A stretch of DNA of 64,000 bases from Eledone cirrhosa (Eukaryota): the NCBI GenBank assembly GCA_964016885.1, contig OZ024741.1, positions 270,320,001 through 270,384,000 of the forward strand. The letters are read 5' to 3'. A program made the position numbers and the translations under genes. The first letter of the stretch is position 1. Every line of letters begins with the position of its first letter. The notes beneath the pieces are model-generated. The model searched no databases and was not told the DNA's origin. It saw only the letters and a program-made list of their open reading frames with translations. Positions 2,277 through 43,900 of the stretch are shown here, in pieces.

Positions 2277-2936
2277 TAAATGAAAGGTAGAGTTAACTCA
2301 TACTGAAACCCTGTAATTAACAAGCTCAAAGTATAAATACTGAGCATTATAACAATAACATATGTAGTAATAAACACAGTAAATTATGTGTCTAATATTA
2401 CGAGGGTTGAAGAACCACATTTGTTTGAAATATTTAACCATGAAGCAGACAGAATGATAAAAATAAAATAAAATTATACAGACCGCCTCAATAACAATTA
2501 CATCTCTCGGACAGATTAGGGATTAATCTGTTTCGCCCTGAGTGTGTTTGTAACAGATAATCCACGGGCATCATCAGCGAGAGAATCTGATTAAATGCGA
2601 CAAACACCTATATTAACGTTCACACAGAAAAATGAATTCTTCACCTCGTGTGCCGTAAGTCAAAAGTGGTGTGAGTGGATTGGGCAGAAATAACAGAAAT
2701 AACAGTCCAACACACGCAACTTTATAGGTTTACCTAGGGAGGGAGCCGAAATATAAATGAAAGGTAGAGTTAACTCATACTGAAACCCTGTAATTAACAA
2801 GCTTAAAATATAAATACTGAGCATTATAACAATAACATATGTAGTAATAAACACAGTAAATTGTGTGTCTAATATTACGAGGGTTGAAGAACCACATTTC
2901 TTTGAATATTTAACCATGAAGCAGACAGAATGATAA
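2277..2936 (-). mobile_element. Penelope-like pLTR/retrozyme-type element, about 1.4 copies of a 477-bp unit
   Basis: Direct repeat 2277-2460 / 2754-2936, (TA)n on both flanks, hammerhead fold inside. Confidence 0.7.
2503..2584 (-). ncRNA. Canonical type I hammerhead ribozyme
   Basis: UCUCUCG-CUGAUGA-U-GCCC..GGGC-GAA-ACAGAUUA(AUCCC)UAAUCUGU-C/CGAGAGA: 7-bp stem I, 8-bp stem III, GUC cleavage triplet. Confidence 0.88.
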
Positions 2937-3048
2937 TATATATATATCTAGTTCAAACATACATCTAGTAGGCACCTCTTAACCATTATACCCTCACCCA
3001 TCAACTCCTGCCACACCATCTTTACACTGTAGACAAAATATATCTCGA

Positions 3049-40900: not shown

Positions 40901-43900
40901 TCGAGGTTAACTTTGTCTTTCATCCTTACGGGGTCAATAAAATAAAGTACCTGCAATGTACAATGTGCTGGCCTTGGGCCAAAAGTAGAAACAATTATAT
41001 TTATAATGTTATTTATACAACTGTTGAGGAAGGTGGGGTGGGTGTTGCTGGCCATTCTGCTGGAATACTTTTGCAGTCTTGACCGTGAGGTGCAGCCCCA
41101 ATACTGCCGCACCCTAGGCCTAGAGCCCCCTCCTTTCCTCCTCCCATTCTTCTGTGGCCCTAGAGCCTTTGCCTTTCTTTTCCGTTTTCATTACCACAAA
41201 AGACACTTGTATTTTTTACAATAAAACATTTGTCATTTATGTATCCGGTATGTTAGAGCAAAAAAAAAAAAAACTATTATAAATATAATATTGAGATAAG
41301 TATTTACAGATCTAGTCAACCCATTCTAGCATGTTAAAAAACTAACATTATAACAATAGCAATAATTGTTTCTACATTAGGCACAAGGCCAGCAAATACC
41401 CAGTGCATTACTGGTACTTTATTTTATCGACCCCGTAAGGATGAAAGGCAAAGTTAACCTTGGCGGGATTTGAACTCAGAATGGCAAGTGCCGTAACTCT
41501 ATACGTCAAAGCATGGCGTCCGACCCTCTACCGATACTGCCAATTCACCGCCCTATAACAATAGCAATAATTGTTTCTACTTTAGGCACAAGGCCAGCAA
41601 TTACCAGTGCATTACTGGTACTTTATTTTATCGACCCCGTAAGGATGAAAGGCAAAGTCAACCTCGGCGGGATTTGAACTCAGATGGTAAAGGGACGTAA
41701 CTATGCTGGAAAGCATGGCGTCCGACCCTCTACCGATACTGCCAATCCACCGCCCTTTATATAACAATAGCAATAATGATGACAATACTTCTTTCACTTG
41801 CACAAATCTTCTGTATTGTTTGTGTTTGTTTCCTCTATCTCTATATTATCCTCTGTTTATTGAATAATACCACGTAATCATCCTATCTGCATCTATGCCC
41901 ACTATTTTGTCTGTTTACAAAGACTTCTCAGTTAGTCATTCAACCAATAAGTCTATTCTCACCCAAATCTTACTCTAGAGTTACGGCCCTTTGTGTTCTG
42001 AGTTCAAATCCTACCGAGGTTAATTTTGCCAATCATCCTTACGGGGTCGATAAAATAAAGTACCAGTAATGCATTGGGGTAATTGCTGGCCTTGTGCCAA
42101 AAGTAGAAACAATTATTATAGACTGTCCCTGCTATTTTTAGAGGATATGATTTCCAGTGAGTTTCAGCTGCTTGAAGCTAACATATCAAAGGGAGTTTAT
42201 CCGGTTGTAAGATTGTATATATATATATATATATATGTAAGGTTATATTTAAAATTGTTGGGTTACAACTAGTAAATATTTATAACTGATATAAAAGCAC
42301 TCGACAAATATTTGGAGTATATTTACAATATTAAATAAATGGAAAACTATATTTATAAAACCATATCTATTTCATTATATATATTTCGGGGATATCATAT
42401 TAACAATATGCTATGCCTTCATCAGACAAAATACAATATAAACAGTTTTATAGATAAATATATTCGAGATACCGTAATAAACATCAACTTCATTTGAAGA
42501 GGTTTACTCTAGCAGTGAAAATACAGAGAGAAAGAAAAAAAGAGAGAAAGAAAAGAGGGAAAAACGAAAGAAAGAAAGACAAAACGAAGAAAAGGAAGAA
42601 AAAGAAAAAGAAGAAATGCATGGAACAAAATAGAGAGATGGAAAAATAGATAAAGTGAAGAGCTTCATGTAAAGAGACAGAAAGATATATATATATATAG
42701 AGAGAGAGGAAATAGAGATAGATACATATATATATATAGAAAATTAGGTAGTGGGAGGTCATTTTGAGTAAGTGTATCAATGATACATTTATTTATTTAT
42801 TTATTTATTTATTTATTTAGCTCAAGTATTAATGTAAGGGAGATATATAGAGAGATATAGAGAGAGAAAAAAAAAATAATAATACGCTCAAATTTTTATA
42901 CCACATTGAGAATGTTTTCCGATAACTTAGAGTTTGCGGAGTGAATCAGTTGGATTCACATTGAGATTTGTAGCTGTCACATAGACATATGAATTTTTAA
43001 AACTAAACATAAGATAATGAATTTTCACACATTGTGAATACTTGTTTCATTCAGGAATACTGATATTTACAGTGTAGTGTAAGTTTTATAAATACTAATA
43101 CATTAAAACATAGGGTTTTCTACGCCTCGAATATGTCTGGATATTTTTAAATTTTTTTTCTCTATATATATCTCTCTATATCTCTCTATATATCTCCCTT
43201 ACATTAATACTTGAGCTAAATAAATAAATAAATAAATAAATAAATGTATCATTGATACACTTACTCAAAATGACCTCCCACTACCTAATTTTCTATATAT
43301 ATATATATGTATCTATCTCTATTTCCTCTCTCTATATATATATATATATATCTTTCTGTCTCTTTACATGAAGCTCTTCACTTTATCTATTTTTCCATCT
43401 CTCTATTTTGTTCCATGCATTTCTTCTTTTTCTTTTTCTTCCTTTTCTTCGTTTTGTCTTTCTTTCTTTCGTTTTTCCCTCTTTTCTTTCTCTCTTTTTT
43501 TTCTTTCTCTCTTTCTTTCTCTCTGTATTTTCACTGCTAGAGTAAACCTCTTCAAATGAAGTTGATGTTTATTACGGTATGTCGAATATATTTATCTATA
43601 AAACTGTTTATATTGTATTTCGTCTGATGAAGGCATAGCATATTGTTAATATGATATCCCCGAAATATATATAATGAAATAGATATGGTTTTATAAATAT
43701 AGTTTTCCATTTATTTAATATTGTATATATATATATATATATAGTTAGTTACCTCCCTTCTTAGGAATTGTTCAACTATGTAAAATGTTGAAATTGAAGC
43801 TAACGAAGGCAGTTCTCTCCACAACATTTCCTTCCTATTCTAGTATATAATTACTCTCGGGTCTTGAATAATATCTCGCCTTCCCGCTTATCAATTTTTT

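Follow-up and report, generated by a model that had tools for sequence, protein, structure and literature searches.

Twin bulged stems in the leaders of Hydra-clade Penelope-like elements and their position relative to insertion ends in Eledone cirrhosa

This study describes a small RNA stem motif found in dispersed repeats of a 64,000-nt stretch of the Eledone cirrhosa genome (3.0 Gb; contig OZ024741.1, positions 270,320,001-270,384,000 of the forward strand; the whole stretch is hereafter called the window) and in the leaders of Penelope-like elements (PLEs) of the Hydra clade. The motif mostly occurs twice per element, insertion ends lie a few bases 5' of each of the two stems, and it is a real, clade-wide and apparently undescribed cis element of a known retrotransposon clade.

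Stem-bearing repeats of the window

The window is abundant in (TA)n and in remnants of long interspersed nuclear elements (LINEs). Its stem-bearing sites are members of dispersed repeat families, for which 215 to 3,528 first-look candidates were obtained per query and which were lettered A (25262), B (20056), C (20612), D (35492 and 10767), E (42299) and F (2324). The motif has as its core a four-pair stem (NCUC/GAGN) whose 3' strand is interrupted by a two-base U-N bulge, then a fifth pair that covaries, and a free inner helix; the copy nearer the hammerhead ribozyme is called stem 1 and that nearer the start codon of the open reading frame (ORF) stem 2. All seven sites named in a first-pass annotation of the sequence are present and read as described (7/7), the range 42297-42319 being one base longer than the motif. 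Three additional copies lie at 9183-9228(-), 25385-25430(-) and 35390-35407(-).

The first two of these additional copies are stem 1 of family B, the second adjoining family A in one (TA)n tract; the family B stem 1 at 20056-20105(+) has G-C at pair 1, U-A at pair 5 and a UC bulge, and its copy ends in (TA)n at 20143. The third lies in an inverted arm of family D, downstream of a hammerhead core at 35451-35473(-), and this arm ends in (TA)n at 35344. Family D further has a stem 1 at 35492-35509(+), in an ORF-less unit of ~167 nt, and a variant stem 2 at 35563-35576(+) (GCAC/GUGC, without bulge), which lies 7 nt past the usual far end, with the next hammerhead core after it; in a diverged copy of the family, stem 1 (10767-10788(+)) folds poorly. 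In family C a type I hammerhead core (20494-20537(+)) precedes stem 1 (20612-20661(+)), and the copy end at 20710 is 3 nt before the stem 2 position of the full element, an intact PLE in locus L121 of which family C is the leader. Stem 1 of family A (25262-25286(+)) belongs to a copy with its end at 25337, which corresponds to 3 nt ahead of stem 2 in the ORF-linked copy L199; the inverted arm of this family (25071-25230(-), inner boundary approximate) contains a hammerhead-like core at 25193-25206, and its outer end, in element coordinates, precedes stem 1 by 3 nt. In family E, stem 1 (42299-42318(-)) has A-U at pair 1 and C-G at pair 5, its copy ends in (TA)n at 42232, and the hammerhead core is at 42384-42425(-); an inverted arm of the same insertion (43171-43725(+), core 43624-43665) runs into (TA)n at a point 5 nt short of stem 1. 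In family F, stem 1 (2324-2345(-)) has G-C at pair 1 (37/41 copies), A-U at pair 5 (37/41 copies) and a UU bulge. The hammerhead core is upstream at 2531-2577(-), and the copy terminates in (TA)n at 2273, 4 nt ahead of the expected stem 2 position; the 5' part of a decayed stem 2 (2733-2746(-)) was found in an upstream partial copy (2751-2936) extending beyond the far end.

Two short head-to-head insertions in (TA)n were also found, one of family B (18736-18831; ends 2 nt before stem 1 and at the far end of the family) and one of family G3 (19614-19712; one end 4 nt before stem 2, the other 5 nt before stem 1). Different stem-bearing families are stacked end to end within one (TA)n tract at 25069-25450 and in loci L004, L021 and L355.

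The motif, its distribution and the elements that carry it

The second stem was recognized in L121, where it lies directly past the stop point of the short family C copies and is followed by ATG. The order hammerhead, stem 1, stem 2, ATG holds in most of seven ORF groups of the Eledone genome (95 ORF starts). For other organisms, 79 metagenome loci were sampled, 72 with an ORF start, representing 52 families. Complete leaders (hammerhead core plus ATG) of 31 of these families contained two stems in 23 cases, one in 5 and none by pattern in 3, and two of the three patternless families carry both stems with U-A at pair 1. The spacing is regular, with 46-67 nt separating the hammerhead GAAA from stem 1, 55-83 nt the two stems and 15-49 nt stem 2 from ATG. 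In the sea cucumber consensus Hydra-1_Ajap both stems can be read by eye, the sequence starting 2 nt before stem 1; stem 1 was likewise recognized by eye in Hydra-2_Ajap and in the coral Hydra-2_Amil, with variants in Amil-1, Obim and Crog. Families B and E yielded no copy that continues past the far end, and their stem 2 is therefore unseen. The first-pass annotation missed this twofold occurrence per element, the A-U and G-C versions that it had listed often being stem 1 and stem 2 of a single element, as well as the invariant bulged U and the fifth pair. In locus L220 (C602:97800-105500) two tandem ORF starts of one Hydra-clade family lie ~3.1 kb apart, and a third ORF start belongs to a different family, both stems of which have G-C at pair 1.

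The first base of the bulge is U in 85/85 modules from 47 families, counted with a pattern restricted to CUC, GAG and a portion of the flank, in which this U is not required; the 3' flank is mostly RCU. Pair 5, never required by the pattern, is C-G in 46, U-A in 23 and other in 3 of 72 modules (C-G 50, U-A 23 and U.G 5 in the wider set of 85), to which family F adds A-U. At pair 1, most other organisms have G-C; A-U occurs in stem 1 of five Eledone references (family C: 51/53 copies), and three metagenome families have U-A. Among 45 modules, Watson-Crick pairing was found at inner pair 6 in 35 and at inner pair 7 in 28 (permutation: 14 and 11), and the arms remain complementary across loops of ~5-45 nt. 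Among 50 non-Watson-Crick cells, G.U outnumbers A.C by 16 to 10, and by 8 to 2 among the 18 between paired neighbours, which favours the sense strand. The A-U pair second after the bulge is present in 63/63 modules, though the search pattern demands it; the ORF-side variants (family D stem 2 and Crog) alter this pair and lose the bulge. Alignment A2 holds 63 of the 72 modules, the nine left out being near-duplicates and modules with an uncertain or mismatched arm, so that its 99.7% pairing is inflated by the omissions and the full counts are those of the 72-module set. In the 85-module set the pattern took a wrong 3' arm in A1, G0a1, G2b1 and G3-1 and none in F2, B1, G6-1 and G6-2, and permutation values from that set were not used. 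The four-pair stem is backed by local folding at five of the seven sites listed in the first pass (P 0.68-0.98), and in leader context 37/51 modules fold with P of at least 0.5. Selection on RNA structure, as proposed in the first pass, is supported by the compensated swaps at pairs 1 and 5 and by inner helices that keep pairing.

The excess of the motif over chance was determined in two sets of sequences. In 800 kb of the Eledone genome selected by coordinate, 84 matches were found vs. 30-45 in five chunk-wise dinucleotide shuffles; a same-strand hammerhead core was located upstream of 13/84 matches (10 of them at 97-107 nt) and downstream of 0/84. Leaders of related elements from other organisms held 104 strict matches in 14,218 nt, compared with a mean of 2.2 (maximum 6) in 30 shuffles; the same pattern gave 8 matches on the antisense strand of these leaders and 7 in 130,820 nt of their ORFs. 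When a covariance model built from 63 modules of other organisms only was run over the window, six window copies topped its 14 matches (E 0.005-0.14, rough values), and these six included 3/7 of the sites listed in the first pass. The model missed the sites at 25261, 10766 and 20611 and gave a weak match at 2324 on the opposite strand only; stem 2 was found by it in L121, L025, L199, L220 and L230.

The motif had been described as common to all ribozyme-bearing families of the window, which does not hold for two of them: it is present in 0/17 copies of hammerhead family H (25553 and 45551) and in 0/21 copies of hammerhead family I (35047(-)). In the supplement of Craig et al. (2021, PMC8557442), a search with six 9-letter 3' halves of the motif gave seven places, four at Hydra ends and three inside Naiad or Chlamys records, with line breaks in the supplement text able to conceal further matches. 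Because the two hammerhead families of the window are without the stem and the 3' halves in the supplement are mainly at Hydra ends, the motif looks clade-specific.

The identity of the elements was established from a PLE ORF remnant in the window (49491-49957(+); linker and GIY-YIG endonuclease with one frameshift), the GIY-YIG part of which, at 49559, led to an intact 858-aa ORF (P0001) in L121. The remnant is 76-81% identical to P0001, and its GIY-YIG match is slightly under the Pfam cut-off; P0001 itself had no Pfam match. The ORF in L121 shows the Hydra-clade traits of a single ORF of <3 kb with reverse transcriptase (RT) and C-terminal GIY-YIG, DKG changed to DKT (ADKT at P0001 residues 124-127), a CxCx5C linker, and CxxC and CxH in the nuclease without CCHH. 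The clade's hammerhead in the repeat and its insertion into (TA)n were also found, with cores that look decayed in some ORF-linked groups. In the N-terminal RWK, W38 is invariant and the preceding R is present in 24/28 aligned proteins, P0001 itself reading LWR. Of the solved structures, telomerase RT comes nearest to the predicted P0001 model; the best named homologues of the protein are hypothetical proteins of cephalopods, and no relative of P0001 was found in viral contigs. Two long low-confidence inserts of P0001 between RT and linker (residues 486-589 and 669-705; L121:3480-3790 and 4030-4140) are missing in most homologues (~700 aa).

The families had been called unrelated in the first pass. 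Families A and C are leaders of Hydra-clade PLE ORFs, in L199 and L121, and the remaining four share the layout and the target. For B, D, E and F no ORF-linked copy was found among the loci examined, and their probable grouping with the Hydra-clade PLEs rests on the hammerhead, the stem, the end layout and the (TA)n target. The ORF-less family D has a type I hammerhead, 167 nt between cores in L315 and a unit restart at 35596, and only partial tandems were seen. It keeps both end sites plus the variant stem 2, as expected of a passenger.

Insertion ends and a putative docking role of the stems

Ends of copies were mapped on 12 family references using 370 (TA)n-flanked 3' ends, of which 69 far ends of families B and E were set aside and 301 were mappable. 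A distance of 0-7 nt before a stem was found for 237 of the latter and one of -2 to 10 nt, a zone that spans 13% of positions, for 278, with a mode of 3. Among loci not fetched for the family in question the figures were 63/84 and 77/84, and among purely random loci 18/25 and 23/25. In family A the distance is exactly 3 nt for 19/22 stem-1 ends and 23/28 stem-2 ends. Downstream repeat ends of other organisms fell at -2 to 10 nt in 16 of 23 cases, representing 15 of 18 families. Ends at each stem also combine in head-to-head insertions, whose outer ends were at stem 1 and stem 2 in 68 cases, at stem 1 twice in 2 and at stem 2 twice in 0, with 8 partly unassigned; independent choice of ends predicts half mixed pairs. 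The top-ranked family B loci had been selected by a query already having the head-to-head layout; untargeted loci gave 16 mixed pairs, 2 with stem 1 twice and 0 with stem 2 twice (p 0.0007). The purely random set held just 4 assigned pairs, all mixed (p 0.06). The twin stems thus delimit the previously unexplained PLE 'tail', and since stem 2 lies outside the inserted DNA it would act on the template side.

Starts of copies gave a different picture, as none of 35 TA-flanked 5' starts is within 4 nt of a stem start. The circularisation considered in the first pass found no backing here, there being no excess of copies beginning at the start sites. Two ORF-bearing copies (L125 and L206) have a 5' edge against (TA)n immediately ahead of stem 2, at the point where the short copies terminate; this is not general, and the TA-like site of the element itself may have been reused as a target.

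From the location of the ends we propose that each leader stem is a putative docking site for the element's own RT-endonuclease, setting an internal RT start ~2-5 bases 5' of the stem, a reading to which we give a probability of roughly 0.65. The role in RT/endonuclease recognition or priming that had been suggested in the first pass gains support in this form, as a putative role, from copy ends a few bases 5' of each stem. The element protein would cut both strands of a (TA)n tract, and each cut end would anneal over 2-4 bases to the AU-rich stretch ahead of one of the stems and so prime cDNA synthesis. Two cDNAs from one RNA, joined at their truncated far ends, would then account for the known inverted arm, and the known 'tail' would be the interval separating the two starts. 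Short ORF-less units with a hammerhead and both stems, such as family D, would be moved in trans. More loosely, the bulged U may take part in a U.A-U triple that, like those of TAR and 7SK, would be read by an arginine, perhaps of the RxRxR run before W(F/Y)NPP (arginines conserved in 18, 25 and 26 of 28 proteins) or of the N-terminal RxRW (21 and 24 of 28), and two protein molecules may serve the two stems. A dimer prediction for residues 1-485 scored 0.00 in two runs and bears neither way. The extended form of the proposal, a doubling of telomerase-like anchoring in which two TAR-like arginine pockets on one RNA would dock two RT-endonucleases, each priming one side of a double-strand break in (TA)n a few bases off its stem and together accounting for the tail, the head-to-head insertions and the trans-mobilisation of retrozymes, is taken as a whole a tentative suggestion that we consider rather less probable than its negation.

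In telomerase RNA (at the template boundary), the R2 3' UTR and hepadnavirus epsilon, a small structured element near the template positions the RT. To our knowledge the arrangement proposed here differs from those RT-docking RNAs in having two copies per RNA, each 3' of an internal start and together serving both ends. The closest experimental case is PAc, a Poseidon-clade PLE of the green anole, whose protein cuts and extends both target strands; two internal RT starts bound its tail and match genomic ends, and hammerhead cleavage is not needed (Frangieh et al., 2024, PMC11167929). PAc belongs to another clade, and its binding motif was bounded only to 172 nt. With the Hydra-clade PLEs of Craig et al. 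(PMC8557442) the present elements have in common the short single ORF, C-terminal GIY-YIG, DKT, the CxCx5C linker, the hammerhead in the repeat, (TA)n targets, the inverted truncated arm and the tail, which in other organisms is 55-83 nt here vs. 30-40 there. The accessible text of that paper describes no stem besides the hammerhead; the twin stems are readable by eye in its own consensus sequences. The arginine sandwich motif of HIV TAR and 7SK ASM3 (Pham et al., 2018, PMC6189040) shares with the stem the order paired base, bulged U, spacer, G-C, A-U. The G-C and A-U pairs, which come one spacer after the bulged U, are placed for a U.A-U triple and are followed by G-C, as in TAR. The likeness is at the sequence level only; in the PLE stem it is the 3' strand that bulges, the other side being closed by the loop, and the proposed role is priming, not transcription control. 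Animal non-LTR (long terminal repeat) retrozymes (PMC7229834; bioRxiv 10.64898/2026.07.22.740005) resemble family D in being ORF-less, with ~167 nt, a type I hammerhead and a unit restart; the accessible texts name no PLE mobilisation signal, and the two start sites of family D offer one.

The chief rival to docking is a nuclease cut 5' of the hairpin, in which the GIY-YIG domain would bind the hairpin on the sense strand, as single-stranded RNA or DNA, and cleave a few bases to its 5' side, the ends then being copied or joined to (TA)n. The end-mapping data fit this equally well, and Craig et al. attribute the tail to endonuclease-mediated resolution (PMC8557442). A precedent is SsnA, a bacterial GIY-YIG nuclease that recognizes the NTS hairpin by sequence and structure in single-stranded DNA and cuts a few nucleotides upstream, a matching geometry (PMC11893778); it acts on single-stranded DNA only, is a single-domain nuclease without RT or twin layout and is inactive on RNA. 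The PLE studied experimentally starts within uncut RNA, and additional 3' sequence leaves the start in place (PMC11167929). Further, a cut before stem 1 would deprive an RNA of stem 2 and the tail, and the 68/70 mixed pairs are then explained less simply; we consider the nuclease signal unlikely, if the foremost of the alternatives. The stems could instead only recruit or package the RNA, with the nearest AU-rich stretch that pairs with the cut (TA)n setting the exact ends. Such a view draws on the A/U-rich bases 5' of the stems, the common end microhomology of 2-4 nt (mode 3 nt) and the family-specific offsets. It is made improbable by the distribution of ends over TA-like runs, 21 of which near stems hold 158 ends vs. 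8 in 35 equally TA-like runs elsewhere in the leaders, and by the short, narrow offset seen in 12 references and likewise in other organisms.

A regulatory RNA signal, either TAR-like elongation control from a promoter in the repeat or translational control by the start codon, would make the end positions secondary. Stem 2 does terminate 15-49 nt before ATG, and the bulge layout is like the Tat and HEXIM sites in TAR and 7SK, while ends 2-5 nt before both stems and the retention of both sites by the ORF-less family D are left unexplained, and we think this explanation quite improbable. The remaining candidate is a double-stranded DNA binding site for the element protein with incidental pairing, in line with which four of the five core pairs are nearly invariant in sequence, the 3' half of the motif is near-palindromic, and Drosophila Penelope endonuclease required the tail in plasmid DNA (as cited in PMC11167929). 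Complementary arms across variable loops, pairs 6 and 7 in excess of permutation, joint swaps at pairs 1 and 5 and strand-biased wobbles all speak against a DNA site, which we rate as the most improbable of the four.

Several observations weigh against the docking proposal. In other organisms, 7/23 downstream repeat ends fall elsewhere, and the end offsets differ by family (0-7 nt) and are blurred by TA microhomology. Among the mixed pairs, 27/68 depend on the far-end assignment of families B and E. The stem 2 of family D and that of family F are without bulge, yet ends at both are used. Local folding did not support the sites at 10767 (P 0.08) and 2324 (P 0.01), the predicted probability of pair 5 averages only 0.34, and the stems are absent from the global minimum-energy fold of the L121 leader (z -1.14). 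On the RT tree, which contains only Eledone genome and metagenome elements, pair 5 of stem 1 switches four times and the independent-pairs test is not significant (3 pairs, 2:1); phylogenetically independent covariation depends on few events. Lastly, the PAc start is in an AC-rich stem-loop inside the ORF, unlike the leader layout here (PMC11167929).

The first-pass annotation had not recognized the stem as a named motif, and none was found: Rfam, searched with E up to 1 over the window, L236, L262, L309 and L121, gave no match to the motif, all matches being under the gathering score and nearly all on simple repeats. The available article texts (PMC8557442, PMC11167929, PMC4209133, PMC7229834, PMC3846280, PMC6189040, PMC11893778, bioRxiv 10.64898/2026.07.22.740005) describe hammerheads, tails and inverted arms and no such stem, with figures, Repbase entries and subscription papers outside the scope of this survey. 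For the question of how PLEs, the closest relatives of telomerase, pick two internal starts and why they insert head to head with a tail at one end, a clade-wide candidate of 20-25 nt is offered here that has an invariant bulged U, is present twice and by its position predicts both ends to a few bases. If the proposal is true, a portable 25-nt stem would suffice to choose the copying start on any RNA. For annotators the stems can serve as a marker of Hydra-clade boundaries; they are also a candidate for the missing cis signal of retrozyme mobilisation and a possible case of convergence on the TAR/7SK arginine pocket.

Other features of the window

Hammerhead family I (34900-35110(-)) carries a hairpin of its own ~10 nt before the (TA)n end, with compensated subfamily changes among 21 copies; possibly this is the matching signal of another PLE clade. 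Copies of hammerhead family H at 25456-25646 and 45454-45644(+) end in (CA)n/(TA)n, and no ORF of its own was found alongside in 17 copies. A hammerhead-like core at 26362-26386(-), which may be due to chance, had no second copy among the loci examined. Two tandem arrays were found, one at 29090-31700 (end approximate) with a 55-nt unit in ~43 or more copies of 93-96% identity and one at 3032-4300 made up of a ~47-nt piece of a repeat resembling short interspersed nuclear elements that recurs widely in the window. An 833-aa open frame at 50282-52783(+) encodes a LINE RT with a Cys-rich insert, which we take to be RTE-like; there are several decayed copies, and related pieces lie at 1-1302, 9262-10645 and 54191-55746. 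At 14127-16835(-) a GC-rich decayed non-LTR element, presumably R2/NeSL-like, has RT motifs and an upstream Cys-rich frame.

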